From Ascidiella aspersa (lineage: Eukaryota), in assembly GCA_963924565.1 (NCBI GenBank), contig OZ004614.1, positions 9,796,001 through 9,860,000 of the forward strand: 64,000 nt of DNA, read 5' to 3'. Shown here one piece after another: positions 3,566 through 61,100 of this stretch. A program made the translations under genes and the position numbers. Numbering within the stretch: position 1 is the first letter of the stretch; each line of letters begins with the position of its first letter. Below the pieces are notes generated by a model, which was not told the DNA's origin, made no database searches, and was given only the letters and a program-made list of their open reading frames with translations.

Positions 3566-6500
3566 GTAAGTGGGTGGAATTTTGATTGCCATAAGGCATA
3601 AGGTATCTCTTTTGAGCCGATGCCGGATGATGGTAAACCAGTAATGATAAACCTGGAACAAATACCATGTGGTATAGTATCGAAACTACACCGCCAAACG
3701 GGCCTTAACTATAAACATAAAAAATAGGTTGAAACGGGTATATATCACTAAAATGCAGGTCTTATTCTAAACATATTGGTATACCCAAGCATATGTTAAA
3801 AATCGACTGCTCTGAGAAGTAGCTCCAATCTAAAAACCTTTTATTTTTTTTATGGATTAGTTTTCCCGCCATTTTTTAATTACTTGCTTTTACACGTATA
3901 TAATGAATCGAATTTTGCACAGACTTTGTCGGGCCTTTTATAATTTTGAAAAACACAGTTAAAACATTAATACCAGTTAATTTTAAATATAAGGAATAAG
4001 CAAATCATTCCTATTCCGACTTTATCACATTTAAGCCCGGAATTCCATCCAATTAAAGCGATACTGGCCCTTTCCAGTATCGAAATTTGCTAAAGTCAGG
4101 TAGGCCTTGACTTTTACAATTTGACGATACTAGATCGTATAGTATCAAAGCTCGACAAAAAACTAGAGCCTTGATAATTGCAACTTTTATGATTTAGGTC
4201 ATAAAGTATATGGCAATTAAACGAATACTATAGGCAAAGTGGTAAATGGATCAAGGTCTAAAACTTGTGAATATGTCAGCGTCGTTTAATGCCAATATCA
4301 AGTCTGTTGCAACTCTTGTCTCAATTCAAGTCGATCCTTTAACATTGACCTATGAATTCGTTCAGCCGAACCGATGGCTACTGAATATTTTCTTACTGTT
4401 GTATACATATGTTTATGCAAAAAATAAGTAAACTTTCCACAACACATTGTTATACGTAAAATAATTACGTGAGGTCAACTAAGTACGGTGACTAAAGTGT
4501 CAGCAACGCCATATAGGCCTATAGCTTTGATCTTGCTGCTGGGCTTAAAACCACCGCCGAAAGGTTAAACATATGGAAATTGATCATGCGAGTCGCGTGA
4601 TTAGAGCTTAAAGCAAACAGCAAGTACACCATCCAACCGCTCTGTGAAATCGACACCCTTCCTTGATTAGGCATCGGGTTGCCCGTATGCATCACGGCCA
4701 AGGCTGTGTTTTTTCGCAAACCATCAGGCTTGCTGTGGTTTGGAAAAACAACGAAAACCGTATCCTTGATTAACAATGTACAACGGCACGTGCAATGTTG
4801 CTGCTGCATCAGTGCTAAGGCGGCTAGTTTTTTGCTGGTTTGGAGAGAAGAACTACAAGTTCTTTACATGAATAAGGGCTTTGGTAATCGATAGCTGGGA
4901 TCAGCGCGCGGGAAATTGATCTCTTTTTTCCATCCATTCGACTGAAAATTTGTGTCTTTGAGTGAATCTATTTACGATCGCTATAGCGCTGAATCTTTAA
5001 CTGCAATTAAGAGACAATCTATTCTTCGAGTGACAAATGTAGGCATGTGGACAAGCAGCAGGTCTTGAACACAATATCGATTAGATAATATAACTGGCAA
5101 ATAGCTACGGGTACATTATACACCGACTTGCAATTTAGCTTGATAATAAGTAAATGGACATCATCTTGATTAGAAGTGTTTTCTATACGCACTTGTAACA
5201 CACTAAATGTTGATGATACAAGTGCGGATCGAAATTTCTTTATAAAGATGATGTCGATTTATGCAACTTTTTCGGCTATGGCATTAATTATCTAGCTACA
5301 ACTGGCAATATTATGATGTTAACTTATTGCCTTGTCCAGGCTAATATAATGCAATATTGTGTTAAGAGCATTATTACTAAAAAACAAGATAAGTTATAGC
5401 GCGAACTACAGTATGCGGTAAACAAATCACAGCTGAAGTCTGCATGGTCATGTTCAATACATTTATGAAACTTCAGATGAAAAAGAGGAGGGCCTACGTC
5501 ATCATTTCGATTACGTGGATCTTGCCGTTCATCTACAGTTTGCCGGCTGCCTTCGGATGGAACTGCATCAAGCATTGCGACTGTATGCCGGGTTACTACG
5601 GAGGGTACCGGTGCATTTCAAGTTAGTAGCGCTCATGGCCTTTTTGTGAACCCATCTTTGCATCCTTTAGATTTCCATTGTGACTTCACATAAGTGCAGT
5701 TATTTAGTTTAGCCGCACGTGAAGAACTTAAGGTTTGTCGGCAATTGAATGACTTTAAACAGGGGTAGCCAACGATTTGTCTAGTTTTTTTTCACGCCCA
5801 ATTGAGATGCGTTTCGATACGCCATATTAACTTTTATTCTGTTTTAGAATATCATTAATTAATTTAAAACGCAGTATCAGCTATTTAAGTTACTATACTC
5901 CCGTTGCACTTTTAACGAGTCTGCTCTATTTTTTTCCCTATGCTATATCTGGGGATAGCGTGCCAAATATAATAGTGTTTTTGGTAAGATTCTTTCTTTT
6001 TAACTTTTTTACAAAAAACGTCTCCTGCCGCAGGAACAGACGCGGCTCTCTGCTCCCGAGTCTGGAGTCCAATGAACAACGTCCACCTCCTTCTGGCGGC
6101 CATTATCTGGTTCGTAGAGCTCATCATAATCGGGGTGAACCTCTTCTACGCCTTGCACAAGTACTACCGCACCTCGGTGCGACCCGCGCCCCATTCGACC
6201 GGCGAACGGGGGCTGGGTAAGTCCCAGGGAAAGTCCCCGACTTTATAGGCCTTAATGTACGTTGATAAGTTGGTAGGCGCGCTAAGAGCAACAACTCTAC
6301 CAATTTATGATAGGGTTAAGTAAGTTAGCGCTTGTTCCCCTCAGAGTTGGTCAAGGGTTAGCCCAATGGTTTATTTAATTTGTAATAATAATGATTTCTA
6401 AGCATAAGGTTTTTCCAGGATTTATTTAAATGTTAGCCTAATGGTTGCACATTGATTAGCCACTTGGATAGGTTCTAGGGTTATTTAAAGAGTTATCCAA

Positions 6501-9500
6501 ATCATTGTCGTTTGGCTATCCTTACGATTAGGTAGAGAAATAGCACTTCCAGGCTTTACATCAACTCTTATTCAACAGTTATTTAAGAATCGTAGCCTAC
6601 TGGAGTATCCAAGGATTAGATCTAGGTCAACCAATGTTTATCTAAATATTTTGCGCCTGGGCTAGTTCAGCAATCTTAAGTCATCGACAGCCAATTATTT
6701 TAAGTATATCTTCTGGCAAACCTAAAATTTTCAAGAAAGTGTTTTACAATTTCCAAGATACAATTTTAAGAAAACTGTTCTACGTTTAGAAATTGAAGTG
6801 AATAACGCGATTACCCAAAATGCTTTCAAACAAACAATTATATACAAGTCGATCAATTGATCGAAATAGATTAAGCTAAAGTCACTCGTTTAACTGACTT
6901 CATTCGAGTAAAGTCACTGGTCCAAATGACTCGAGTCAGTTTAGGCATTTTGCCAAGGAGATCAAGGACAAGTAAAGTGAAAGTTTAATTTAGATACATT
7001 TAACGTACAACTGTTCAGGATAGCCGTGGTTTTATACTTTCATAGCACTTTTTTCTGTTTGGGCAGACGAGTCTACGGTATCAGCTCAAACTGCCCCTCC
7101 ACCGACCACAATTCACAAACGCTCCATCGACAAGGCACCAGCAACCACGACAAAGGTAACCCTCGTCCTTAGGCATTTCGAACTCATTTCCAATTTGCCA
7201 GAGGCCAACACTTGGTTGAGTATTGCATGGGTTGTATTCGTTGCCACACTTTAAACAATATTGAGCGCGTCTATCTCTATAAGATCTTGCGAATACGGAC
7301 CAGGATTTTTGCTACGAAGCAGAACGAAAATTTTATCTTAGATGGTAACCTTAAGTAACTTGCTCTGCCCGGTCGATCTCGTGCGCAAATGTGTAATTGC
7401 AATTGTAATTGATGTATCCATGGAGATTAAGGACTGCAATGGCGTCAGGGAATTTTATTTGCCTTTATGTGATTAAACATAACAAAATTTATTACTTTAA
7501 AGGGGTCGTGGTGCACTGGATACACAGAAAGTCTCAAGTTCCCAGATACAATAGCCATTAATTCGAGATGACTGTCATAATCTTAGAGGAGAACATTGAC
7601 CCAAGCCTTCTGGCAGCATAGACCACTATTTAGTAAATATTTTACAGATAGTTTAGGTTTGCAAAAATTATTTTCAAATAGGAAGATGACTCGATGCTAT
7701 ATAAACGGATCAATCCCGGTGTATAATCCATCGTGCTCGGAAAGAAATGTCCACCGGGAAACGCGTTTTAAATTTATACTAGCTGTCTTTAGGTCAATTT
7801 ACGTTGATTGGGATTACGTTGCATGACTCATCTCGGCAATTATTATTGGGTGTCAAACAAATGTTGAGGGACTCGGGACTTGGGCGTTTTGCGGGAATCG
7901 GGACTCGAGTATGACCAATCTGCCGTAATTTTGTGCAATATCTTGCACTTTTTATTTTAAGCCAAGAGGTGCAATGCCAACAATTTCAGTTAGGCCTACG
8001 TTTCTCTTTGATTGCATTCGCGCAAGAGAACCCCAACGTAAACGTGACTGTCGGCATACAATTTTTACAAATTTTACTACAGGTAGTAAAAAAGGGAAAG
8101 AATTGTTCAAGAGAAGACCTAACAAAATTGCGAATATGCGGGATTAGGTGGGCAAAAACTGTTAGTTCTAATAAACATGACGCAATGCGCGAACAAACAA
8201 TATGTTCATATTGCTCGATATAATTATTATAATTGTCTAATCTTATAAAAACTGACCTTTCAAGAGGATATAAATTCACACTATACACAACACGATTTAG
8301 TTACATGAGGCCTTTTGGGCAAAAATTACTTTGCGGGGGGGTGCACTGGATGATTTCATTAGATTTTAGAAGGGCGGCGTAGTTTTTAATCAGATATCAG
8401 TTTTAACAACTACAAACTAAGTCTTGTGAGAGGGATACAGGATCCTGCTCAGAACAAATGCGTAACTTTAACAGGTTGTCTAAGGCGATTTGTGTCTTGT
8501 TTATGCAGACTGCACCTAACCTATCACTCGCGTCATGATTTCCTTCGTTTGGTTCCACGGTTATTTTACATACAAGAAACCGAAGAAAGCAACGTAATTG
8601 ACATTCCCTTAAACAATAGTTTAACATTTACGCCAGATTAATATAATTCTCACTAAAATTGTAGAAGGTTTTGCCAAGTCTATGGCGTAGATAGGTTCAA
8701 AAGGTGCGAAATATAGCTATATTTAGCGGATCAACATTTCCTTACTTTAACCTTTTTGAATTGAAAAATATTTCATTAGTTTGCTCTAATTGGGCATTAA
8801 AAAACTATTTTATTATTGGATGGCAAATATGTTGATACTTTAGACTTTTTATAGCTGTTATTTCCAGGTAAGAATAAAGCCCCGATATCACAAATGTTCA
8901 AATTTCGTTTGACAAAATTGTCTAATTCCGCTCATTTTCGCAGCCTTGCTTTTAGATAACGAAATTCAAAAGATAAAAAGCCAAACTACAATTATAAAAT
9001 GCAGGTAATATCAAAACCCATGCAGAAGTAGGTATCATTTTGAACGTTCGAATAACTCTTCATTCATATTCAACATGATTACTTATGTATGGGCTTTGAT
9101 AATCTTATTACGTCTTACTACAACCTCCAACAATTATTATGCTCCAAAATAAATAGCATTGTTTCATTTCAGGCGATGCTGACCAGACCGATGCACCCGA
9201 CCGTGAAGTTGCTAATCCTCATTTCGGTCGCCTACGTCATGGCCACGGTTCCGGTAATGGTGTGCGTGGTCACCGATTTTGTTGGCGCCACCAGCCTGGG
9301 GGCCACATTGGTCAGCGACATGGTCATGACGGCCGTGTCCAGTCTGGTAGTACTCTACTGCTTCGCCTGTCCAGTTATTTTGATCGCCTACATGCCCGGA
9401 CTCCGCAGCGCCATCGTGCGCTTATTGATGCCTTGCTCGTGCACCTCGACCAAGGTCACCGCCACTTTTATCCGCGGCGCCAGGGTCAGCGAGAGAAGGT

Positions 9501-9538
9501 CGAGCCAACGGAGGCAGGCCAGCCAGCAGAGCGCCTAG
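3325..9538 (+). CDS. Class A GPCR, EDG (S1P/LPA)/cannabinoid-like, 5'-partial; exons 3325-3565, 5477-5621, 6034-6216, 7067-7155, 9173-9538
   Basis: Five GC-richer exons with AG/GT ends join in frame (phases 2|0|1|1|0) for about 340 aa. TM3 WAFRKAFMVAFFLILSGNVSAL resembles LPA1 WLLRQG...ANLLA. TM4 ITWILPFIYSLPAAFGWNC carries the LPxxGWNC signature. Hydrophobic TM5-7 and helix 8 (PGLRSAIVRLLMPC) follow. TM1-2 exons were not found and probably lie upstream of the window. Confidence 0.85.
5477..5621 (+). CDS. GPCR exon: TM4 and Cys-rich ECL2
   Basis: cttcag|ATG AAA AAG AGG ... TCA A|gttagt; encodes MKKRRAYVIISITWILPFIYSLPAAFGWNCIKHCDCMPGYYGGYRCIS. A weaker in-phase donor exists at 5592. Confidence 0.8.
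6034..6216 (+). CDS. GPCR exon: ECL2 end and TM5
   Basis: cctgccgcag|GA ACA ... CTG G|gtaagt; TDAALCSRVWSPMNNVHLLLAAIIWFVELIIIGVNLFYALHKYYRTS. This frame is not in the ORF track. Confidence 0.8.
7067..7155 (+). CDS. GPCR exon: ICL3 (Thr/Pro-rich)
   Basis: ttttctgtttgggcag|AC GAG ... ACA AAG|gtaac; bridges phase 1 to phase 0 exactly as the flanking exons require. Confidence 0.7.
9173..9538 (+). CDS. GPCR last exon: TM6, TM7, helix 8, C-tail
   Basis: tttcatttcag|GCG ATG CTG; two hydrophobic helices, then a Ser/Arg-rich tail and TAG. Confidence 0.85.
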   Translation, partial: AMLTRPMHPTVKLLILISVAYVMATVPVMVCVVTDFVGATSLGATLVSDMVMTAVSSLVVLYCFACPVILIAYMPGLRSAIVRLLMPCSCTSTKVTATFIRGARVSERRSSQRRQASQQSA

Positions 9539-17919: not shown

Positions 17920-19377
17920 TCAAATAATAAGTTTTATGTCACTTGGAATTTTTGACGAGGTGACCCGGTGCGTGAAAGGCCTTCGTGATGTAAGTGGATG
18001 ATGTGAAATGACGACGAAGAGCAGTTCAATCTGCGGCAAAAAAAATTAAAAGGCTTAGAAAAAATGCGTTGTAGTAAATGGCAATTTTTCCATTATCTAA
18101 ATTGCGAAGCTGTGTATATATTAAAACCCATTTACAAAAAAGCGTTGACAAAAATGACAATATATCCTTTACCGAAATTGCGAAGCAGTGTATAGATTAA
18201 AAACCATTTACAAAAAAAAAACGCTGTAGTAAAGGCAATATTTCCAGTATCTAAATTGCGAAGCTGTGCACAGATTAAAAAACATTTACGAAAAAACGTA
18301 GTAAATACTATTTCCATCTGTGTCTAAATTGCGAATCTGTGGTTAGATTAAAAACCAATAACAAAAAAAATTGTGGCAGTTTCTAAGTTACAAAGCAGTG
18401 AACATATCAAGAATCGTCGTAAATGTCCACGAAAATGAAATTATTTGGTGAATTGACTTGACTTTATCACTTCACTTATTAATTCTTTGACAAGTTTTAG
18501 TAAACCAGACTCACCAATGGCTCTGCGGCTATGATGGCGTGATGACTTGACGATGACGCCATTTCTTGCACAACCGAGGTGGGCGAGAATCCTCTGAAAA
18601 CAATAAGTTTTGTAAACAGCGCACGCTCGTGTTAATAACACGTAACAAATGTTTTAATCTCACACAAATATAACTGACGCCATTCTGGCGATTTGGGCAT
18701 TGTAAGCTATAAACTCGGAAGGAATCATGGGTGTCACAAAAATGTCCCTTGTTGTTGGGCATTAAACTCCCAATTTTCAAGGAACTTGGCAACCTAGGCG
18801 TAACTAAATGACACTGATAGAATCGTGTCACAAATGGATGCCTAAAAATCTTCCCCATGTATAAGTCGTGTATAACAGTTATTTATTGAAAAAAAAAAAC
18901 AGCTAAATATGGGATAGCCGAATTGACAAAACATATTGTCTAGCTGTGAAAATGCCAGACACGCGATTGTAACTGTTTACAAACAAGCCGTCGAATACCT
19001 TATTATTACCTACTCACTGGAAAATCCAACCAATGTTTGTCGCTCGACGGTGGCTCTCTTCCGCGCAGACTGCTCCTGGCAAACGAAATAAAATTTTAAA
19101 CCAAGTGTTAAGAGCCCATGAAAGGGTAAAAACCACCGATTTAAATTATGGTAAAACGCTCAAACTGCTCCTGCTATAATTGAGACATCCTTTGCATATC
19201 ATCTACATTCATTATTATAGCTGTGACAGCAAATTAGCAGTACACAAATACTATATTTCTATGAAATATATATGTTTTAATTACAGCAAGGGGTTTTAAG
19301 CAAAATTCCATCTTACCAGGAGCGTAGCTGGGACTTTGTTTATCTTTTCCATCTGCTTCTTCCGCAGTTAAGCGCCA
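17920..19377 (-). other. Cryptic four-exon unit (19377-19317, 19075-19018, 18593-18515, 18030-17920); orphan or transposon-borne gene, 5' end unknown
   Basis: GC-richer islands, each preceded by a pyrimidine tract plus CAG; the first three end in gtaag/gtgag; one spliced frame stays open for 102 codons. Confidence 0.45.
18061..18410. repeat. Minisatellite, about 76-bp unit x about 4.5
   Basis: Recurrent core ctaaattgcgaagc(t/a)gtg...gattaaaaaccatttac. Confidence 0.85.
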
Positions 19378-22664: not shown

Positions 22665-23314
22665 TCACTCTTCCTCTTCCCACCATTCTTCCTCTTCCTC
22701 TCGTACCTCTTGCTGTGGCTCCTCCTGCCTCTGCGGAAGATCGAGTCGTGGAACCTCCTCGGTCGAAGCTGGAGTTTCTTCCTGGATTCGTGGCTGTTCC
22801 TCTTGGGGTGGTTCTTCCACTCGTGGAGGCTCTTCAACAACTGGCGACTCTTCCAATCGTGGAGATTCTTCTTCTATTGGCGACTCTTCTTCTATTGGCG
22901 ACTCTTCCTCTATTGGCGACTCTTCCTCTATTGGCGTCTCTTCCTCTATTGGCGTCTCTTCCTCTATTGGCGACTCTTCCTCTATGGGATACTCTTCCTC
23001 AATTAGTTGCGGCTCTTGTGTTGGCTCTTGTGTTACGACCTCTTGCTCTTGTTCCGGACTTTCTTCCTCTTCTTCGTGTCTAGGCTCCTCAAGATGTCCT
23101 TGCTCCGGGATCCTGTTCTCGGTTTCTCGGTGGACGGACATCTCGACGTTGAGGTCCGTTCTTAGGACATCCTTTTGTTCTGGAGTCGGACGGATGTACT
23201 CCGGCTCTTCTTCTTCAACTTCTTCGCGCTCGATTTGCTGCGAAGTCTCGTCAATGGCTGGGATCGGGAGCCGGATGTGCTTTTCCGTGGCTTCCTTGCC
23301 GTTGGCCGGTGTTT
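22665..23314 (-). CDS. Terminal exon: Glu/Pro-rich tail with (IEEESP)n repeats
   Basis: tcttttccag|AA ACA; long acidic ORF ending EEEEEWWEEEE*. Confidence 0.85.
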
Positions 23315-26300
23315 CTGGAAAAAGACAAAATTTGTTTATGTATTGAAATATTGACGCATAATGGTTGGAGGTTGTAGTAAGATGTAATAAAAACATCAAA
23401 GCCCATACAGAAGTAGGTACCTTTTTGGACGTTTTGAATAACTCTTTATTTAAATGCAAGTTGTTGGGCAAATGTTATTCATCCATCAACTTATCGCAAA
23501 TTATGCCGTCAGAGTTATTTAAAAGCATTAACTGAAATCCATGAAGTTTTCCTCGGGGGTAAAGTGAGGTAAAAGTATAAGAACCGCGCTGATTGGGTTG
23601 AAAAACGTTTGCGTGAATCTTCACTAGCCACACGTTATGGAATACAGTTCACTTAAATTACACATGGGCCACAACGCTTACATTCCACTGTTAGAACGAG
23701 CAACCCGCGTTGACTTAACTGTGTTTACAAGTGTTTTTGTAGGGCTGTCACATCGTTACAGCTCTCTTGTTTATCACCTGGTGTCCCAAGTCAAACAGAA
23801 ATAAAAAGTCCCGACCGCTTTAAGATAGGTTTCGATGCTTATCTGTTTGCGCGCCTACATTTCAAAATCGATAGGTTGAAAACAACAACAGCAGCAGCAG
23901 CACGAAATCGTCTAGAACGTGCCGAGTCAGTGGGATCGCAATTACGGCAAATGTGCAGATAACAGGGCAGGGCGGCACGAGACACGAGCTCTGACGGCAA
24001 TTTTAGCCCCGGCTCTGACGCGGTATGGTTCCAGCAGCCGGCACTAGTAGTAAACAAACACAGGGCAGTCGGGGCGAAAGATAACGACTGACTCGTGAGT
24101 AAGTCGTGTCGGTTTTGCCGACGAAGAACTTGCTCGGTTGTTTCCAGCGCTGCGGTTCATGATCGTCACGAGTCGACCCGCGCGTTTTTGAACCCCAGTG
24201 GTTTTTCGCTAAACTTGTAAACAGCACGTCGCAAAATGAAAGACGCACGTCGCCAAAGAGCAGTGAGCGGTTTGAAGTCTCGTGTTGACTGTTTACGCCT
24301 TTTGCATTGTTTGTATATTTATCTGTTTAAAGTGCGAGCTCGAGAACACTTTTGATGTCGATTTTTTTATGATTTTTTATTTTGAGGAAACTTGATCGTT
24401 TGTTTGAGGAGGTTGTCAAGGTTTAGACGTTGAATGTACAATGTTTGGTGTTTTACAGAAGAGTTTACCATATATTTTGTAAAGTTATGAATATTTTGGT
24501 GCCAAATTTAAGATGCTATCCCCTTGTCTCTTTAGATGGAAACTGAACCATTTATTTTGTAACGTTATAAATGTTTGATGTCATGCAATTTACGTCAGAC
24601 CCTTGTCCTTTGTCAAACAAACACCGCTTATTGTGGAGATTACGACTTAGTTTGGTAAATGTTACCCCTTGTCCTTTGTTATGCAACCTTACTGTTTACC
24701 GTCCAAGGTCACAAACTTCGCATCATCGCCATAAATAAAAGACACACACGTGATGCCGATTGTTGTGTCACGCGATTAAAGGCAGGAGCGTGGGTGCTAG
24801 CGAAAAACGTTCGACAGGTGTTGCAGTAATGAGACGAAAATAAACTCCTCCCCTCAAAGCGACAACCGTATAAGAGAGTTTTGCGCAACTGATACGGGCG
24901 CATGACGCACTCCATGCAAGGGGCGTGCGCAATTCGACGCGCTCCGAGAATTACAGGGCCGCCAAAGACGTCTAATAGCCGAAAACGGTCTGTAGTTGTT
25001 TCTGGCGGCGACGGTCGCCGAATTTTCGGAATATATCTCCGCGATATATGGCGCATCTTTATAAAAGTGAAACACATTGGCGGGAGGTTTTATTAATTCC
25101 TTGTTTCGATTGGTTTTATTTTTACGGGAATTGGTGATAAAACTTTTATTTTTATTTCTTTAGAGATGAAGATAACGCCCCAATTTGCCGCCTTTGTTTG
25201 TCATATAAACTTGGGAAGCCGTCTACCTAACTGTGTCCGTGGTAAGTAGTTTCTCCCTCGCTTGTGATCTCAGTTAACATGCAAAGACCACCAAGACGTG
25301 GCACGACTTTAAGCGTTTTAAGATCGACACAAACCAACCCGTTTGCTAGTTTTGGATTTGACGAAATGCCACAGTCTGCGGTGTGCGGCCCACGCCCGTG
25401 CAAGAGGGCCAAGCCTTTGCTGATCCTCTCGATAATGTTTTGCAAGTGCATTTCTCATCGTCTACAGCACGCCAGTGTGCACGGCTACTTAAAAAAATGC
25501 CAAGTGCTCGCTTGAAAACAAGTGCGTGTCTACCCTTAATTCTACCATGTCTTGAACATCATTGGGACGATTATGGCAATAGATGTTAAGTCGTTAATAG
25601 GTGTCACGCGAAGGGCGTAACCCAATGCAAAAGGATTTGGTGGCCAATTTATGCACTTGTTATGTTGTTGTTGCTGCTGCTGCTGTTGTTTAACATACAA
25701 GCGACATGCTAACTTTTGTGTTCGCGCTGCTTTGACTCTTGGCGGTCTACCCGACTGTTATTATCGCTGGTGGCAATGCCTTGTTGGCTTGATCACGAAA
25801 AAAGTTGTTGTTCCGTTGTCGGACGTGACTAGAATGTTTAGTTGTTATTACATTTTTAATTGATTTATCCCTTGCTAGAGTCATGGAAAATTACATAAAA
25901 ACGCATTAAAGGGATTCCTCAAAAGTCTATGTTCAGTCATTAAATCAAGCAACCAAATTGCAGGAGAATTTTCGACTTGAGAATTTTTAGCAATTTTACC
26001 AACACGTGAAACGCTATGGCAAAGACTTCCGCCAACTACAAACATAATGTAGCTAACCCTTATTGCGTGCTCCATTAAATTCAACTTACCTATGCGAACA
26101 ATAGGCGCTGATGCCTGGAACTGCTTGAAGCAAGTCAGTGCCTTGAAGCCGTAGCTGTCGATCCAGCAGGGGAGGTCTGTGTCGCAACTGCGCTGCGTGT
26201 CGCGTGCCGCTTTCGTGTCGAGCTTCAAGCAGCGCGATACGTTGGCCAGAAAGTTATCGACTTCTGCAACGGAGAAAAGAAAAACCTTTATCAAATTCAA

Positions 26301-29300
26301 TCACAAAAGAGCAAGAGAACTAAGGATATTTACAACATTTCTTCTAAAAACTGTAATAGTCAGAAAACTCTTACTAGTTAAAGATTTATATTCTTTAGAC
26401 TTTGCTGTCTTGGTCAAAGTCAGAAACTTATTAATGACTAACTTAATATTTGCTCCCATTTGAAGTAATTGTCGTCATTTACGTGTAAGGGGTTGAAGAC
26501 TTAATCAAAATACGACTAAAAATACATTAGACTATTTTGACTTACGTTGATCCGCCTTGCAAGCCGCCAAACAGGTTCCGGTGGCCGAACCGACCAGCTC
26601 CATCCAGCAAAACGCGTTGGTGCTGCATCGCGAGTATCCCTGAGCAATGGTTCTCCACGGTTGGCGCGAGCATTCCCAAACGCACTCGAGAACAGTCCTG
26701 GCTCGTCGTCCGATCAGAAGAGATTCTGCAAACGAAAAGGCGATTATTATCACGGATTTTGACTAGTAAGATATGCTCTTTTTTTAAATGTAGTTTATTT
26801 GTGTTATGGGCTTTTTGTCGTTAACTTAGTGTTCATTGCACACCCTAAACACAAGAATAGTGTTGCTGGTTCTTAATTCCATAGGCCCGTAAAATGTAGT
26901 GGATTACTTCTAGTATGAATACAATTCTATGCTAAGCCTGAAGCAGCTTTGGTGAGTAGTCTTACTGAACTCCCCTTGAACTGCAGTTCTTGAATCATCG
27001 ACTCAGTTAGACAAAGAGAAGCATATTGTTTTACCTGGCTGGTAGCATCTGGGTCCGTCTTTGCTGGTGCTATCGAAGCAGCAACCTCGCGACTCGCACA
27101 CTTTGTCGGAGATTGAAGGCCAGCCACAGTCGACACGTTCCCTCGTGGTGGCCACGCAAGATCTCAAGGTCGACTTGTCATTGGTGCTGGCGAGAGAAAC
27201 CGGGAAAAAGGCGCTCCTCAGGTTGACCTGGTTGGATGGCGCGCGAGGAGCGAGAGAAGCGCCTGTGACGAAACAAGAGAATGTTTAGGTTTGACATTAT
27301 TTAACTATTAAGAGTGGTTTTATACTTCTACTAAAAACATATCACACCATGCTTTGTAAATCTATTGTCTATAACTATATTCGGTTTGCGAAATGCTGAT
27401 TGATATGTCGCCTTATCATCAACAACATGCCACACAGTTATTTGTACACCTATTTCACAATAAAAATAACTTTTGTTTGTTTAAATGTGTTTTTATTTTG
27501 TCGCTCTTTTGCCAATACAATGCCTTGAAAATCTAGTTTAAATTCAACAAATCATGTAAGCTACAGTAGCCCGATTGTATGGGAAGCACATGGGAATTTT
27601 GCTTTGTCATTGTTGTTTTGGTTTAAAAGAAACTGAAACACGAACTACACAGTGGATCATTGTTGATTCAAACCGTTGCACTGCAATCGCGCGGGCTTTG
27701 GACGTCTTAATACCTTTTAAAACGCTTTCGGTCGTGTAACTACAAGCCAAAAGCTTCTTTCACTTCGCACCATACTTCCTTTACACCGGGATGACATCTA
27801 CGTTATTATCGCGCTGCATTGTAAGCGGGAGATTAGGTTTAATGTGCAACACAGCTATTTTTAGTCTAGACGCAGCAGTCAAATCGGCACGCAATTAAAA
27901 CGTCTAGACCTGTCTCACAAATGGGAATGCTGTGCTTTAACGGATTTAAAGCCCCTTTTACTGCTCGTAAACAACACATGTATACGGTTATACGTGCACA
28001 CGTGGCTTTAACAGCTTCGCCCAGTAACTCTGTTTATGGAGCCATAAATCAGCGGGCAAAAATAAACCGCCTGATGAATGTGTTGATCATAAATTCCGCC
28101 ATCAGCAAATGGCCACGTACGGTAGAATTGCAATCGCAAGTCGAACAAAGTTCAACGGGGTATCGCAATTCCGAGATTTAAGCGTTGTTTTGTTTTGACA
28201 GTTTACTACAGCAGTTTAAAGGTGGACCGTCGACAACAATACAACACAAGTCGTATGGCACCTTTTATCAGGCCAGTGTATACCATAGTTCAAAAAGTGC
28301 CAGCTCAGCGTTACCAATTATTTATTTTGTCGTTTAACGCTGTGAATCAGTTCTTGGTCACTTTGGCATGGTAAGCTTTATCTACCCCGTTTCAATTTTT
28401 TTCTTCGTGCCATGGCCCACCCATTAACCAGTTCAAATAGCAACCTACCTTCCCTTAAAATCCAGAACAACTTGAACCAACGAAAAATACTATTTACAAC
28501 AAAAGTTATATTTAGGGGACACACAGCTCCATTAAGGAAACGGCACCTGGCCAAAACAACGACTTCAATGGGATTCGTCGTAACGGTAATTTAGCTCGGC
28601 GCGCCGCTTTTGATTGGCCAATTTCCCGCGCGATCGCACCGACTTGCTCAGGCCACGCGATTCCGGTGGGAGAAAGTTGGTCTGCCGATCGTTATGGCGA
28701 GATATTTTCGTTTCGAAATGAAGCGACCGGTATTTATTTTCTGATGTTGCTAAGAGCGAGATTATCGTTACCACTTCATAATTTTGTTTATCAGTTTTAA
28801 TCTAAAAAATGTTTCAGACCATAGGGAAGTCGTATATATTATCGGAGCTGATTTCAAAGTGGTAGTTTCAGTACTCTTCCAATTTCAGGGGTATCTATGC
28901 CGATCCGATGATATTTTGTTTATATCATACATTGTGCCAATAGGAAAATGCTTTCAAGCAGGTCACACTAAGTGCGTATGTTGCAAGCTTGCATCACCAA
29001 CCAATAACCATGTTTTAACTGCGACCAAGGGTTCGGCCGTCAGTCAAAACCAGCACGCACTGGTTGCGTCAAATTTTCGCATGCATTTCACCAGATCGTG
29101 CGGCTTGGGGGTCGCGACCCGAACGCTATAAACACATACACGACAAAAACATGCGGATAGGCCGTTCGTCGCCGTTCTTCGGCGCATTTGTTTTATCAAG
29201 TCAATCGCGTCCAGGCATGCAAAACCGGACGAGAAATACGTCATCAATTAGCGGGCAACTTTGACTTGTGGTTCTTAAAGTGTGGGTATTATCACTAAAG

Positions 29301-31090
29301 GGGTAAACTGATGTTTTTATATGGGGAATTGTAGCATAGAAGATATAGAAGATATCTTTGAGAACTGAAAAGCAGATAAGAAGTACTTAGCTTTAATTGA
29401 CATATGAAAATCAGTTGTTAGATAATTTATTATTCTTGTCTTAATTGATCAGTAATTGTTCATGACTTTATAATGAAGTCACGACTTTATAATCTAATCG
29501 AATTACATTGTGTTCTTCACAAGTGTGAAACGAACCACTTATCTAAAAGATAAAGTGCAAAAAAACAAAGCATGTTCAGACAGAATTGCGATGGCATGCT
29601 ACATCGAATTCGCAAAAGCACACAACACACACAGTTTCAAAGGAGACTCACTCTGCGCGCTTTCTTCAGTATTCGGTTTAAAGCAGCGGATTACGTTTGG
29701 TATCGTTTTGTCAAAGCAGCAGCCGCTCGCCAAGCAGCGCTTGCGTCCGAAATGGACTTTTGAGTTGCACATGACTCGGTTTTCCGGACGTATGCTTGTG
29801 CATTGGATACCTGCTGACAAATTATACAACCTTGAAGAGCTGTATTTTGACTCAGTTTTGGTGCACCCGAGATTGCAATGATAGTACAGTGTTCACGCTT
29901 TAAAATAAATGCCGTCGATTTGAAAGCAATTGTTTTTTAATTTAAGCAAGCCAGAGTTAAAGTGGAAATGTCAAGCTTGAATATACGTAATAAGATCACC
30001 GACAAAGCAGTTAAAGTTGCAGTCAACCTTTTTTCCTTTAACAACTATTGTTTACAGTCGTGCCATCACAATACACTGCTGACTCTGCTGGATTACGTAG
30101 CCAATAAACATTGGTGTAATGTACATTGGATCACGTATAGCTAATAAAGTTGGTCTAATCTTTTGTAACACGTGCGCTAACCCGATTGTAGCACTACCCT
30201 CCCAACAATCAACAGTTAATGTTTACAGTTTTAGCGCTGAGGAACTCTTATCCTATTTGGTTGATAGCCTTTTGTTATCAGTCGTTTAGGTTTTGACTTT
30301 CCCCGATAATTCCTGATCATTACAAGGCGTGCCTGAATGAACGGCGACTAAAACTACAGGAGAAAATACTGTTTTCGAGAAAAAATAATTCCCAAATCTG
30401 TAATTTCCAGGGAAAACTTGGATTACCTTTATTAAACGCCCACAGCTAGCCAGTGTAATAATAACGCTGAAACTATGCAACAACAATGAGCACTGTGACG
30501 TAACACTGCTCCAAGGTTGTCTGTGGAACACGTCCGATTGTTTGTCCACTTACATGTTTACCACTTGAGGATTTGAAAGCTGATCGGTTTATTGTTGTTC
30601 GATTACAGCGAAATTCAAGTGTGATTACGGGGAGAATATCCTTGGCCTAAACGACGCGACATTCCAGAGGAGAATGCCCTGGGCCATGTGTAAATTGGCA
30701 AATCGGCGAAAGATTTTCGTGCAAGTATAAAGGCCTCCGGTTTGGTGAGCGTCAAAAATACGATTTTGCTACTTGTCGCATGTGAACATTTTAACGTCAT
30801 TGTTTGTATTTAACAATCATAGACCGAAAAAAACGGACATTTTATTAAAATATATTTATGTTTAATGCCTCCAAATCATTTTAATATATGTTTATAATTG
30901 AAATTTCGCAATTTGCAAAAACTAAAATATGTTCTTTTACAATTGTTGAGCGTTCCGTTACCGAAATAAATTAATCTCGCAATTGAGCAGGAAATATAAA
31001 ACTGAGTTTGAACTTACCACTCAAGGTTGGGGCTCCCGAGCAAAAAGCAATGCAGATGCTGATGGCGAAATATAGAACGATAGAATTCAT
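22665..31090 (-). CDS. Secreted trefoil (P-type) domain protein, 487 aa; exons 31090-31018, 29810-29652, 27262-27035, 26725-26546, 26263-26090, 23314-22665
   Basis: Six exons with canonical splice sites and all introns phase 1 total 1464 nt, open from ATG to TGA. Signal peptide MNSIVLYFAISICIAFCSGA, two six-Cys trefoil motifs (RxxC...C..xGCCFD...C), two Cys-Trp repeats, acidic tail. Confidence 0.88.
22830..23003 (-). repeat. Coding 18-bp minisatellite, about 9-10 units (IEEE[S/T]P)
   Basis: Plus strand ctcttcctctattggcga repeated in tandem. Confidence 0.9.
26090..26263 (-). CDS. Cys/Trp module B exon
   Basis: ttctccgttgcag|AA GTC ... ATA G|gtaagt; 174 nt, phase 1-1. Confidence 0.85.
26546..26725 (-). 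CDS. Cys/Trp module A exon
   Basis: ttttcgtttgcag|AA TCT ... CAA C|gtaagt; 180 nt, phase 1-1. Confidence 0.85.
27035..27262 (-). CDS. Linker and trefoil domain 2 exon
   Basis: CVATTRERVDCGWPSISDKVCESRGCCFDSTSKDGPRCYQP; this frame is absent from the ORF track. Confidence 0.9.
29652..29810 (-). CDS. Trefoil domain 1 exon
   Basis: CTSIRPENRVMCNSKVHFGRKRCLASGCCFDKTIPNVIRCFKP; NAGNAG acceptor (cagcag), donor gtgagt. Confidence 0.9.
31018..31090 (-). CDS. Signal-peptide exon of trefoil protein
   Basis: ccaagATG AAT TCT ... TTG AGT G|gtaagt; hydrophobic core ending in small residues. Confidence 0.8.
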
Positions 31091-31489: not shown

Positions 31490-31525
31490 ACTGTGAGCAT
31501 TCGAAGCGGCGGAGCGCTATTTATA
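31490..31525 (-). promoter_or_regulatory. Putative TATA box and initiator of the trefoil gene
   Basis: Minus-strand TATAAATA at 31525-31518 in a GC-rich context; pyrimidine-A (tcAcag) 31 nt downstream at 31494. Confidence 0.55.
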
Positions 31526-35505: not shown

Positions 35506-35680
35506 TATTTTGGAGCATATTGGTTGAAGGTTGTAGTAGGACGTAATAAAAATATCAAAGCCCATACAGAAGTAGGTATCATTTTGAACGTTGAAAAAGA
35601 GACGATGTTGAAAATTAATAAAGAGTTATTCGAAACGTTCAAAATGATACCTATACTCTGTATGGGCTTTGATATTTTTA
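35506..35680. repeat. Dispersed repeat with internal inverted repeat; other copies about 9008-9151 and 23349-23455
   Basis: Shared ggttgtagta.ga.gtaataa.aa.atcaaagcccatacagaagtaggta.c.tttt. Confidence 0.85.
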
Positions 35681-48500: not shown

Positions 48501-49658
48501 TATAGCTATATGATAAAACGCAAAACGGAAACGCCCGTCGTCCAAGTTGCTTACACACGAGCAGAAAAAACTGCATAGTTTCTTCGCCGGAAGAGCCAAT
48601 TGACAGTTTTAATTGGAGTTGTCGCCTATTTAACGAAAACGACGGCGACCTGTCAGCATCTGCGACAGATTTACGTCCCACAAAGATGCCTGAGTCAATC
48701 AACGCTCCTCGACAAGCCCGTAATTTGCTTTTCGCCAAATTAACCGCCGGCCTGAAGTGTTCAAGCCTTTTGAGGAAACAACAAATTGCGAACCATTTTC
48801 GGGCATATTAGCGTCCGCAGCCAAGACAGTTAATCAATGATGTGAATAAACCCAGCTGCAGCTTAACGTTTACGAGGTTATGGTGCCTCATCATCTATTT
48901 AATAGATTTTGAATGAATGTATGTTTTGCCAACTTTCGAAATTGTTTGCCAACTTTCGAAATTGTTTGCCAAGTTTCAACATCCTGACATAATGAACCAT
49001 TTTTTTTGTCGATTAAAAGCTCGCATTTTCGAGAGTGCAATCATACAATTAAAGCCAGAGTTTTATCGGGTTATCTGAGTTTGCACGGAGGTTATGCGGT
49101 TTGATGAATCATTAAGCATGTACTGGCGCATCCCAATGCACTATGCACCCTCATAACGAGTCAATAAAATTCTTCCGCCACAAGCCAAGATCGATTGGGT
49201 TATATCACGCGAGCTCGCTGCGGTCAAAATGCCACGAGGGTTGTTGAATTTTGACAGGCGATCAGTGTGTTAAGTTCACAGCGTTGTTACAAGCTTTAAC
49301 GCTCTGTATCAATGTATATCGATCGAAAGGGCAAACGAAATGCCTTCGACGAGATGCAACTTGCCAGTGTCGCCTCGTACGTCCAGTATACATGATTTAA
49401 ACAATTTCAAAAGCAGATCTCAAATATTGTCTTTACTTTGACATTTTTGTCGATATTTTTATTAATTTTATTTAAATGAAGTCTTAACAGTTCGCCCTAT
49501 GAATCCATCGATCCAAAGGGTCCATGTTGGCCTTTAGAAGGGTTCCACAGGATTTTCGCAGCGATAAAGATCATGTTTTTAATAGAGATCCGTGTATTTT
49601 ATGGTCAATAATTCTAATTTATTAAAGCTATACTAATCATGTAATGGGTTTCTAAATA

Positions 49659-49829
49659 GGGTAGTCAGGTTGCAGTATATAAAGACACTTTGTAATGAAT
49701 TCTCGACAAGCTTTCGCACAACCGTGCTTGGCCCTGAATTTGTAGTTTAACCTGATGAGGTAAGGTTTTGCGAAAGCTTGTCAAGATTTCAATACAATGT
49801 GTCTTTATATAGTGCCACCTGATTATCCC
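49659..49829 (+). mobile_element. Penelope-like inverted pseudo-LTR pair with minimal hammerhead motif
   Basis: About 65-bp inverted arms; ttaac-CTGATGA-g-gtaa/ggtt/ttgc-GAAA-gc-tt-gtcaa. Confidence 0.7.
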
Positions 49830-51235
49830 ATTATCAAATTTAGTTTCCGTATATGCATTAATAAGATAAATATTGGGTTGAAACCCTATGTTGGCTTTAT
49901 GGTGTATACTGGCGTCCTTTATTAATTACGCCATTGGCCAGAAACAGGAGATCAGACGAACAATTGGGACCTGTTAACATTGGTCAGATAAAATTAGCAT
50001 TTACACCAAGTGATGTCACACGCTACTGCTACAATCAGTATGACTCAATACGCGTCCCAATATTTTTTGTGTTGGGTCAATACGTGCCACCTTTCTCATT
50101 AAAAGCATCGGCAGTCGATCACGGTTCTATGCCTATCAAAATCAAATCAAACCTCTGGTTTATTTTTCCAGAAATCAGTAGAAAATACAGTGCAATGCAG
50201 TCGCCATGGCACGTTCAGGGTTTGTCAATGGACCGATATCAATAAAATCAGATGTAGCAGACAGTTGGAATACCACATGCCCTCCTTATAAAGGACATTC
50301 CCGTTTTTTAAGCAAACAAATTGCTGTATTTTTGGGGCAGAACCTTAGCGGTGGGCGGTTATCTTTCGGTCGTGAGGCCTATTATCTCAAATGGACGTAA
50401 AAACTAGCATAGAAAGACAACCATCTTTCCAATACGTGACGTCTAAATAAATAAACTAGCGTTTTCGGAATTTTCGAGACTGCATGAATTTGGTGACTCA
50501 GAAATTTGAGTTCCAATAGAGTCGCGACCGAAATTCACGTTAAGTTAAAATATAACCAAATGCTCATTTAACAATATAGTATAACACGCATTACGAACTG
50601 ACAATCGGCGAGATATTGGCGACGATTTGATACTTTATGAGATTCCATTTAATTACATAACGTGTCCATTTGCGCGTTTTCAAATTTTAAACAGTGCGGT
50701 TCAAATCAAGGCGAAGTCATTTTGCCTGGCCTCTGGAATATATTTAACTCAATAAAATATTATTTCCAATCAAGTATCATTAACCTACTAAACAGTAATA
50801 ACGTTTCAATTGTTTGGTTATGGCAGTGGCACTCAACCTGTGGGAAAAGAGCTGGTTTCACAATTGTAAGGGTTAATTTTAACAATAAAATTATATATCT
50901 AAACGTTAAATAGCACAATGAAGTGTCAACCTTTAAATGTTTAAACATGTAATGTTAATCTGAATTCAAATTTGAGGCCACATTAATGTTGTTCTTTCTA
51001 AATGATTGAACGCCAAAACTTCATAAGTTTTGACCTGGTTATTTCAAACCCGTGAAAAACAAGTGTTCTTCGGGACATGGGTAGTCCAGCAGTGCGAGGA
51101 ATCAAGATCAGACATTTTATAGAGATGTTAATTTTTTATTTTGTTTTATTTATTCTGCCTATAACTTTATTTATATTTTTATTAATTGTGATTAAACTTA
51201 ACACTGCTTTCCTGGTTTCCTCAGATAAATTGAAG

Positions 51236-51982: not shown

Positions 51983-52294
51983 GTTGCACTGAATATGTGA
52001 AAAATAGAAATCACCTTGACCCTTGCAAGATAAATGTCGACCTTAATTCCTGATCAGTAACAGCAAAATAATCTAGCAATTCAGGTCAGACACATTAACC
52101 AGATCTTAAAAGATATATATATATATTTCGCCAACTAAGGCATCGTCAGTAGATCTTAATTCGAATGACGATGCCTTAGTTGGCGAAATATATATAATGA
52201 CGATGCCTTAGTTGGCGAAATATATATATATCTTTTAAGATCTGGTTAATGTGTTTGACCTGAATTGCTAGCTTTGCTAGATTTTTTTTGCTGT
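51983..52294. mobile_element. Young Penelope-like inverted pseudo-LTR insertion with hammerhead motifs and 13-bp TSD
   Basis: About 90-bp near-perfect inverted arms; CTGACGA-t-gcc/ttagtt/ggc-GAAA (minus 52149-52126); direct repeat tatatggtaactt at 51970-51982 and 52295-52307. Confidence 0.75.
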
Positions 52295-58016: not shown

Positions 58017-58154
58017 CTACGTGGACTGCACCTTGTTGATTTCCCAGCGCTGCGTGCTCTTGCTCGGATCGCAAGCCGACAGGAAAACGTTGTGCGTAAG
58101 CTCGCCGCGGTCCAGGCACTTGTTGGTCGGCGTGTGCACGAGCGTCTTGGTGTC
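58017..58154 (-). CDS. GALNT7: GALNT7 last coding exon
   Basis: tag|DTKTLVHTPTNKCLDRGELTHNVFLSACDPSKSTQRWEINKVQST*. Confidence 0.93.
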   Translation of the reverse strand, partial: DTKTLVHTPTNKCLDRGELTHNVFLSACDPSKSTQRWEINKVQST

Positions 58155-61100
58155 CTAGCGGGCGACAAATGAAAAAATAAGCGCCGTTAGACGTCGCACG
58201 AGAGCGGTTAGGTGAATCTTAAGACGGTGCGACATTGACATGGGCGAACTTGGCGCACCGAGACTTTTTGAGGGCAATATCTCCGTTGTGCTGCTAAATA
58301 AGTCCCTGAATAGGCTTTAGCAATCCAGCAAACATGCTTTTAGCGAAAAATATTAATATTCATGCCAATACAAGGAATGTATAAAATGTCAGCTTATTAG
58401 CGGCACAACTTTCGGAGATATTGCCCCAAAAAAATCTCCGCGCGCCAAGTTCGCCCAGGTATGATATTGCTGGGTAGAGATGCCGAAAATATCGGATCGG
58501 AGCCCGATGCCAAGTGTGGTAGTATCGGAACACGCCCGATACTAGGCTGGCATTAAGGCCGATACCAAATTAAAATATAATTATGGGTCATGATTGTGGG
58601 GTTTAACACAGTAAAACGTAAATTTATCAATAAATAGTCGGCAAAAAGTCTGGGTAACTTAACTTCTTAGATCTAAAGCAAAGTTTGGCCTAAAAACTGG
58701 AAAAAATAACCAAAGAGTTAAATTTTATATATTTTGTTTGTTTGAACATAATTAATAATGACGTCATTTGATATTGAATCGGATCGCGATAATTTTTGTC
58801 CACAATATCGGGTATCGGAGTAAAATGTAAAGTATCAGACATCTCTATAGGTAAAGTTGCGAGTTCCAATCTCACCAGGCTATTCTTTTGGACAAAGTAC
58901 CTTACCGCCAGTTGACGTCGGAGTGTAGGTGTCGGGTTTAACAACACTTTGCGGATTCGTTGCAAGATTTCTTACCGTCATTAGTGCAATGTAGTGCTTT
59001 ATACCTGTTTTTGGTCGGCATACGCAACTATATTTGATGATACATCAACCAAGTTCAGTAACTCGAAAAACTAGGAATGTCCGATAATAACATACGCGAT
59101 ACCAAGTGTTATTTTATTGCTAATCGTTCGATAGTCGGGTGGTATCGGCACAGATTGCAAACAAATTGGTCCATTAGAGTCATGTTTTGGGATCCAACGT
59201 ATAGTTCTGTATGTAAAAACGTAGGTTTCTGAGAAAATTGTACAATAAAGTCAAATTTTGGCGCAAGATACTGAAAACCATTACAATTGCACTTTGTACA
59301 TTTGATCAATTTTGTTTGCCTACAGCAGTGGTTCTCAACTGGGGTGCCGCGGCATGCTTGGGTGCCATTTTTAATGCTTAAGGGTCCAAAAGATATCTGA
59401 GACCTTTTAGAATCTAATTGTTGCTAACTTTTTTGTAAAGATTAGGGTAGAAAAAATCCAATTATAACTTCCTGCGTTGTGTAGAGCTAATGTGTTCTGC
59501 GCAAGTTCCGGTTATTGTTACATTAAGAGAATTACCTACGAAAAAATCTTGTAGAGCAGGGGTGCTGAAATCTATTTGTTATTTCTGAGGGGTGCCGCCA
59601 GCCATAAAAGGTTGAGAAACACTGGCCTATAGTTATGACGTCATTTAGTGTCAACTCGGATTGCGATACTTTTCGCACAAAACATCACGTACCAGACTCG
59701 GAAAAAAGACTATCAAGTTAAAACAACTTAAACAACGACGACTTACCAGCCTGTGATCCCATTCCCGGTTCGACTGGGTGTCGCAGTGCACCAAGGTAAT
59801 AGCGCCACGCTGGGTCGTCACACACTGGTCGTACTGCGCCAGCTGGTTGGCTTCACTCAGTCGGAAGAGCTGGTTGCCGCCCATTCGGTGACAGTAGCCG
59901 ATTTCTAGCGCCCCGTCGCCGTTCTTGTGTCCCATACTGTCCAGGCACTGTGGCTGCTTCGAATCGACCGTACGGACCTGTAGATAAAGGATTTGTGTAA
60001 AATTTAAGGGTGCCGGTTATAACGGTTCGAAGCCTATACTACACGCCAAGTGTATACTTGTCAGTGTGGTAAACAAGTCATTTTGAAATGACTTGTTTAC
60101 ACCCAGTCGAGTCATTTGTAAGTCCAAGTCAAGACATTTTATTAAAACAAGCCTAACGAACACTACATTTCAACCTAAGTCATTTGTGCAAAATACTCAA
60201 GTTAAATCAAGTCATTTGTTTAAAAGACTTAAGGTCAAGTCTAAGTCATTACAACACTGGTACCGCTACTTGTCCGATAGTAAATTAATCTATTTATTTT
60301 CAGCCTCGATTGCGATCAAACTTAAGCCTTAAGTAGTGCCATAGAGTCCTTAATTTCTCATTCGACGTTTTTGAGAAATATCCAAACAAAACAAAATAGT
60401 ATAAATGTTATGGTGAACACAGTATCAATCGTAAAATAAAAGTTTTACAAAGGCACTTTCGAAACACATAACTTAAGCCGAACATAAAATAAACCCAAGG
60501 ACTTTGGAAAAACCAAAAGGATTTTGTGCAAATTAATTAAAAATACAATCAAGGGTGTTTAAAGATTTAAAGATATTGTGGCAACCTTATAAAACACTGT
60601 CAGGTTCACCTTACATGGGTGTTAAATATAGGTGGTGATATTAAGGTGGTTATTTTGCTTTTCAAGATACTATATCGACGTTGACTCGGAAACATGCAAT
60701 AGAGTCGCGAACGTGCGGAGTACCACGTGACGTGACGTGACCTGACGTTGCTTGACGTCACCGGAAACGGTCACGTGACCAACTTTTCCGGCCAGTACGC
60801 GCACGTTTCGGACACGGGTTGGGAGCTGCTTAGTTATGGGAGTGTTTCCGTTTCACAAGTCACTGACCAGTTCAAACGGTCATTCCGGAAAATATCAAAC
60901 TCGCTTTTCTGTGTGATTTTTCCACATTGTATGAATTTTTTGAAGGCCTCTTTTAAAAGCTTCTGGATTTTTTACATCTTCAGTGAACATTGCCGAAAAC
61001 GGTAGCTTTTAACTTTTTAGTTTCGCAGGGCAAGTTTGGCTCCATAGTTGAGGTATACAAAAAACGCGCAGTTGTATGCTTTTATTTGGCTTTGATGTCA

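Follow-up and report, generated by a model that had tools for sequence, protein, structure and literature searches.

Saposins, about 80 residues long and with a cysteine spacing other than that reported here, and vanabins, with about 18 closely spaced cysteines, were the proteins brought to mind when two cysteine-patterned peptides were first picked out in a 64,000-nucleotide stretch of the Ascidiella aspersa genome (assembly GCA_963924565.1, contig OZ004614.1, positions 9,796,001 to 9,860,000; hereafter the window, with coordinates counted from its first letter). The peptides are encoded by two exons, A and B, of a trefoil-containing gene on the minus strand, and each is a copy of a module of about 48 residues. 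Among the closest described systems, the saposin-like proteins (SAPLIPs: saposins, NK-lysin, amoebapores) have four or five alpha-helices (PMC6072434) and three inter-helix disulfides (PMC6072434, PMC10437998), with two disulfides linking the first and last helix in SapA (PMC10437998). Aureocin A53, epidermicin NI01 and acanthaporin are cationic, amphipathic four-helix proteins of about 50-60 residues, and membrane disruption is an activity of small proteins with charged surfaces and four or five helices (PMC7424198, PMC6072434). In human trefoil factors (TFFs) the sugar is bound by Asp20 and Trp47 (PMC7221086), and at least 12 exons make up the gene of an ascidian trefoil protein, Epi-1, which is reported to be cytosolic (bioRxiv 10.1101/2024.09.30.615758).

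The module encoded by exons A and B is a conserved, spliced domain without a family name, probably of the small disulfide-stapled helical extracellular type, and the two copies almost certainly belong to a real family. Both peptides occur as the original prediction described them, and its range, 26090..26725, runs exactly from the start of exon A through the end of exon B. They align without gaps, with 21% identity over the core and a BLASTP E value of 5e-4 for the pair, their cysteines being spaced 3,14,5,11,3 in A and 14,5,11 in B. Against a profile of 41 non-ascidian repeats A scores 33.4 bits and B 31.5 bits, values reached by none of 1000 full and none of 1000 cysteine-fixed shuffles of each (maxima 26.9 and 21.6), and among the 1612 open reading frames of the window these are the only two below E 0.4; the shuffle and reading-frame tests are not fully independent, because the 41 repeats were first recovered with a profile of A and B. 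When a single canonical repeat was compared with the whole 308-Mb genome, B and A headed three matches (E 0.045 and 0.16). The module is matched in this genome only in this gene, against 43 trefoil-domain matches at E <=0.001 (84 candidates).

A search of 1.84 billion representatives with the A and B profile returned 15 proteins at E <=0.001, of which 13 carried the motif and two, which did not, were dropped; a 13-row domain profile then gave 17 matches, four of them new, among 7995 candidates scored. The total is 78 copies in 20 sequences (near-duplicates omitted), 69 of them distinct, with the consensus F-x-x-C-x3-C-L-x13-C-x2-[DN]-x2-C-[WY]-x4-G-x5-C-x3-C. All six cysteines are present in 59 of the 69 distinct copies; six, all ascidian B, lack C1 and C6, three have C1 shifted by one position and one lacks C2 and C6. 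Trp or Tyr follows C4 in 68 of 69, while the Gly and an Asp or Asn in the C3-C4 loop are each kept in 62. The Thr that had been placed before C5 in the motif first proposed is not a family feature, this position being Lys in 39 of the 69 copies. No Pfam family scores above its cut-off on any single copy, in keeping with the proposal of an extracellular-type family that Pfam does not name, and neither NCBIfam nor PDB sequence searches matched the module. It was not found in the literature searched, where most subscription papers and all supplements lay beyond the reach of the search, and the accessible parts of PMC6410017, PMC5198042, PMC7424198 and PMC3036616 do not describe its cysteine pattern.

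Three architectures carry the module. The ascidian orthologs (LOC100178289 of Ciona intestinalis, LOC143469179 of Clavelina lepadiformis, LOC120341196 of Styela clava, and a fragment from C. savignyi) share with the gene in the window a signal peptide, two trefoils, a six-cysteine A, a four-cysteine B and an acidic tail; they are annotated with trefoils only or as uncharacterized, the Ciona gene having formerly been called 'integumentary mucin A.1-like'. Exon A is 58-61% identical to its counterparts in Ciona and Clavelina and 29% to that of Styela. In the second architecture the module forms arrays of up to 13 copies, found in proteins of a ribbon worm (Lineus longissimus, 9 copies), a tube worm (Owenia fusiformis, 7) and a lamp shell (Lingula anatina, 9 and 13), in a EukProt record (9) and in unnamed ENA records (4-6). 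In the third, EukProt, ENA and JGI records that we infer to come from microbial eukaryotes have a single C-terminal copy behind an unrelated domain, itself about 250 residues long. That domain (P0035-P0038) is secreted and has an MG-x-H-Y-W motif, and Pfam and PDB searches with it gave no match.

In a tree of 62 copies and 48 columns, from which seven copies of the Lingula protein P0005 were left out, the ascidian A copies cluster together and the B copies likewise, so that both A and B arose before these ascidian lineages diverged. The family extends well beyond the single duplication envisaged in the original prediction, and a sister relation of A and B was not recovered. At 21% identity the two are no closer to one another than to non-ascidian repeats, the best of which reach 31-33% identity to each. 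Tandem duplication is a plausible origin for the pair, and the patchy range and the three architectures are consistent with a module spread by shuffling of phase 1-1 exons.

The elements of the gene, with the evidence for each, are as follows.

31518..31525, minus strand: TATA-like element upstream of the signal exon, a putative promoter judged from sequence only.
31018..31090, minus strand: coding exon 1, with ATG, predicted signal peptide and phase-1 donor; sole strong hydrophobic ATG...GTAAGT candidate near the gene.
29652..29810, minus strand: trefoil exon T1, 159 nt, phase 1-1; Pfam Trefoil 37.1 bits (cut-off 21), splice sites and frame.
27035..27262, minus strand: trefoil exon T2, 228 nt, phase 1-1; Pfam Trefoil 47.4 bits, TFF3 alignment and spliced contig.
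26546..26725, minus strand: exon A, six-cysteine module copy, 180 nt, phase 1-1; spliced contig joints, ortholog identity and AlphaFold2 (AF2) model.
26090..26263, minus strand: exon B, four-cysteine module copy, 174 nt, phase 1-1; spliced contig joint, and cysteine pattern and sequons in orthologs.
22665..23314, minus strand: probable last exon, with Glu/Pro-rich acidic tail and stop codon; in frame with B, motif and composition.

Every intron of this gene is in phase 1; exons A and B have AG and GTAAGT ends with phase-1 introns on both sides, and a 282-nt GT-AG intron lies between them. The tail exon (35% Glu, net charge -63, predicted to be disordered) carries a 17-residue motif 65% identical to the tail of the Ciona ortholog, and this motif and the frame joining it to B make it the probable last exon. 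Of the six coding exons, those from signal through T2, A and B to tail give an open frame of 434 residues, or 487 with T1 included, and the predicted signal peptide indicates that the product is likely to be secreted. Within the A-B intron lies a high-copy, MITE-like small repeat with strand-switching joints (26388-26491). A dispersed repeat family with inverted ends (9007-9137, 23348-23459, 35507-35653) has one copy just before the tail-exon acceptor, and the long introns contain G+C-rich islands (29050-29250, 28500-28720, 23850-24250), one with a CCAAT-like motif, that are possibly regulatory.

Four sequencing runs were aligned over 25720-27450, a stretch outside which T1 and the joint between B and the tail are located. 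A 583-nt contig from run X3, whose type is not on record, spans T2, A and B and lacks both introns, its joints falling at the GT-AG sites predicted. At the T2 acceptor, among the loose ends listed, those of four reads of RNA run X4 and one X3 contig correspond to the final 30 nt of the signal exon, so that in these transcripts the signal exon joins T2 directly and T1 is skipped. Variants in the exons are synonymous in four of four cases, and a second data set, X2, shows proportionally fewer substitutions in exons (4 in 582 bases) than in introns (26 in 1045 bases; p 0.011), the intron count omitting the high-copy repeat.

The gene differs from its orthologs in three ways: the transcripts seen skip T1, the sugar-binding Trp is missing from T2, and its tail, of 214 residues, is longer than theirs. 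T2 keeps the position of TFF3 Asp20 but has Arg at that of Trp47, whereas T2 carries Asp and Trp in Clavelina and Styela, and Glu and Trp in Ciona. T1 is intact and in phase, yet it is skipped in the reads and contig seen and lacks both sugar-binding residues, while the orthologs are annotated with it; it is possibly a cassette exon or one undergoing loss. A signal peptide and P-type trefoil domains are shared with Epi-1 and with TFF1-3, although the TFFs lack the module, and Epi-1, with its at least 12 exons against six coding exons here, is probably a different gene, judged from its described exon number and location and not by sequence.

The AF2 model of exon A (predicted local distance difference test score, pLDDT, 92.7) has four helices, at residues 6-19, 23-33, 37-43 and 46-58, and four are also predicted for B of the Clavelina ortholog. 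The small helical hairpin first suggested agrees with the model in being helical, but the module is predicted to be a bundle of four short helices. In the model C1 and C2 lie on the first helix, C5 and C6 on the last, and C3 and C4 around one turn, an arrangement that would suit nested disulfides 1-6, 2-5 and 3-4, which we regard as probable. The outer cysteine pair of A was correctly noted as lost in B, and this is true of all six ascidian B copies; the joint loss of C1 and C6 fits nested pairing. Two points weigh on the other side: the six B copies represent one inherited event and are not independent for the pairing, and the last repeat of P0009 lacks C2 and C6 and by alignment keeps C1 and C5, which nested pairing does not accommodate. 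In exon B, C6 is replaced by Phe and C1 by the Asn of an N-x-S/T sequon, an Asn shared with five other B copies, one Styela variant having Asp; B may therefore bear an N-glycan at the site of the lost outer disulfide.

In proposing a role for the module we draw on its relatives. Hydrophobic columns alternate with Lys-rich columns in the alignment, and repeats reach net charges of +6 to +12 in five of nine Lineus copies, up to +10 in Owenia and +4 to +15 in P0007, separated by spacers of -2 to -6 in Lineus and -3 to -7 in Lingula. Precursors of membrane-active peptides are known to have a layout of this kind, and it is because the cationic amphipathic arrays resemble them that a binding role is considered. 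Many of the repeats also resemble aureocin A53, epidermicin NI01 and acanthaporin in size, helices, charge and amphipathicity, although the four-helix bacteriocins lack cysteine (PMC6072434) and PDB sequence searches with the module gave no match. Under our model A and B would each be one module copy within a secreted protein of ascidian trefoil type, located in mucus or tunic; the helical modules, stapled by nested disulfides, would bind lipid or microbial surfaces; and the A-B pair would act uncut, with the trefoil as a tether and the acidic tail as an extension. Taken by itself, binding to a surface or lipid is plausible by analogy though somewhat doubtful, while we regard the explanation as a whole, a secreted trefoil protein with stapled four-helix modules that bind lipid or microbial surfaces, as evenly poised.

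Several observations weigh against it. The copies in the window are near neutral (A +1, B +2), ascidian A copies have a median charge of +3.5 and ascidian B copies one of 0, and outside the ascidians only 25 of 59 copies have a charge of +4 or more. The A-B linker, of 5-9 residues, has no dibasic site and the array spacers mostly have none, so that nothing points to single units being set free. Both local trefoils lack the sugar-binding Trp, which makes a mucin tether doubtful in this species, and coverage by X4, the one run recorded as RNA, of which 6% was read, has a depth of 2-4 on T2 and A but is zero on B. The principal alternative gives the module no lipid or defence role: it would serve an extracellular matrix (tunic, mucus net, tube or shell) as a rigid spacer or as a scaffold that binds proteins. 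This is a possibility to be taken seriously, if a doubtful one, since it would leave the strongly cationic repeats and acidic spacers of several relatives superfluous and has no known partner to offer.

Binding by stapled four-helix modules could also be read as SAPLIP descent, the module being a shortened true member and the arrays prosaposin-like precursors. The shared features are a small helical bundle with six cysteines and four predicted helices, tandem arrays in secreted precursors and, if the nested pairing holds, three inter-helix disulfides, two of them joining first and last helix as in SapA (PMC10437998). Yet the module has about 48 residues against about 80 and a different cysteine spacing, no Pfam model of the saposins matches any of 13 copies, even at E <=10, and the profile has no PDB sequence match; membership is improbable, and while the module may act like a SAPLIP by analogy, we do not class it as one. 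Membership of the vanabins is not supported: the copies have six and four cysteines, without the vanabin spacing, and Pfam and PDB sequence searches gave no vanabin match; profile searches supported neither kinship entertained in the original prediction.

A further candidate relative is DUF4787 (PF16029), which might share a C-x5-C-x10/11-C-x3-C helical unit with the module by descent. Its matches fall on the C3-C6 half, in 4 of 13 copies and, at model positions 3-35, in 6 of 15 sequences; the best, at positions 3-34, reaches 19.8 bits (E 0.00091). That score is under the 27-bit cut-off, however, the shared stretch covers half of each model (63 positions in DUF4787), and cysteine spacing alone could produce it; A and B have no DUF4787 match in the Pfam search and the multi-repeat proteins do not add up to one, leaving such descent very improbable. 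Chance likeness of two unrelated cysteine-containing frames, or non-coding DNA, might be argued from the A/B identity of just 21%, but is refuted, with practically nothing left in its favour, by the spliced contig, the synonymous-only variants, the orthologs in three genera and the shuffle controls.

Elsewhere in the window, minus-strand exons at 58020-58154 and 59654-60016 have ricin-type beta-trefoil lectin matches (E 1e-4 and 4e-11) and likely belong to an ordinary lectin or glycosyltransferase gene. Weak, sub-cut-off matches to 7-transmembrane receptors occur on the plus strand at 5393-5623 and 9056-9535, the second overlapping the dispersed repeat. Four tandem 76-nt units lie at 18060-18362, and three long inverted-repeat elements at 52070-52274, 58238-58460 and 49655-49832.

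This analysis has identified a nameable extracellular domain family overlooked by current Pfam, whose carriers owe their automatic names (mucin-like, MAM/LDL-like, GAD, RalF_SCD, DUF5766) to neighbouring domains or to summed weak repeats. In its fullest form our proposal is tentative and, taken entire, rather unlikely: an exon-shuffled, stapled four-helix module of 48 residues without a solved relative would be a membrane-active defence or lipid-binding scaffold. Nemerteans, annelids, brachiopods and probably microbial eukaryotes would make it in polyprotein arrays, with acidic spacers between the cationic repeats; ascidians would have recruited it into a trefoil protein of mucus or tunic, where an N-glycan would have taken the place of the outer disulfide in one copy. 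The module is short enough for direct synthesis and assay. If the cationic arrays are membrane-active, the module would be a small host-defence scaffold new to invertebrates; if they are not, it may instead be one of the building blocks of tunic or mucus, materials whose protein parts are poorly known.
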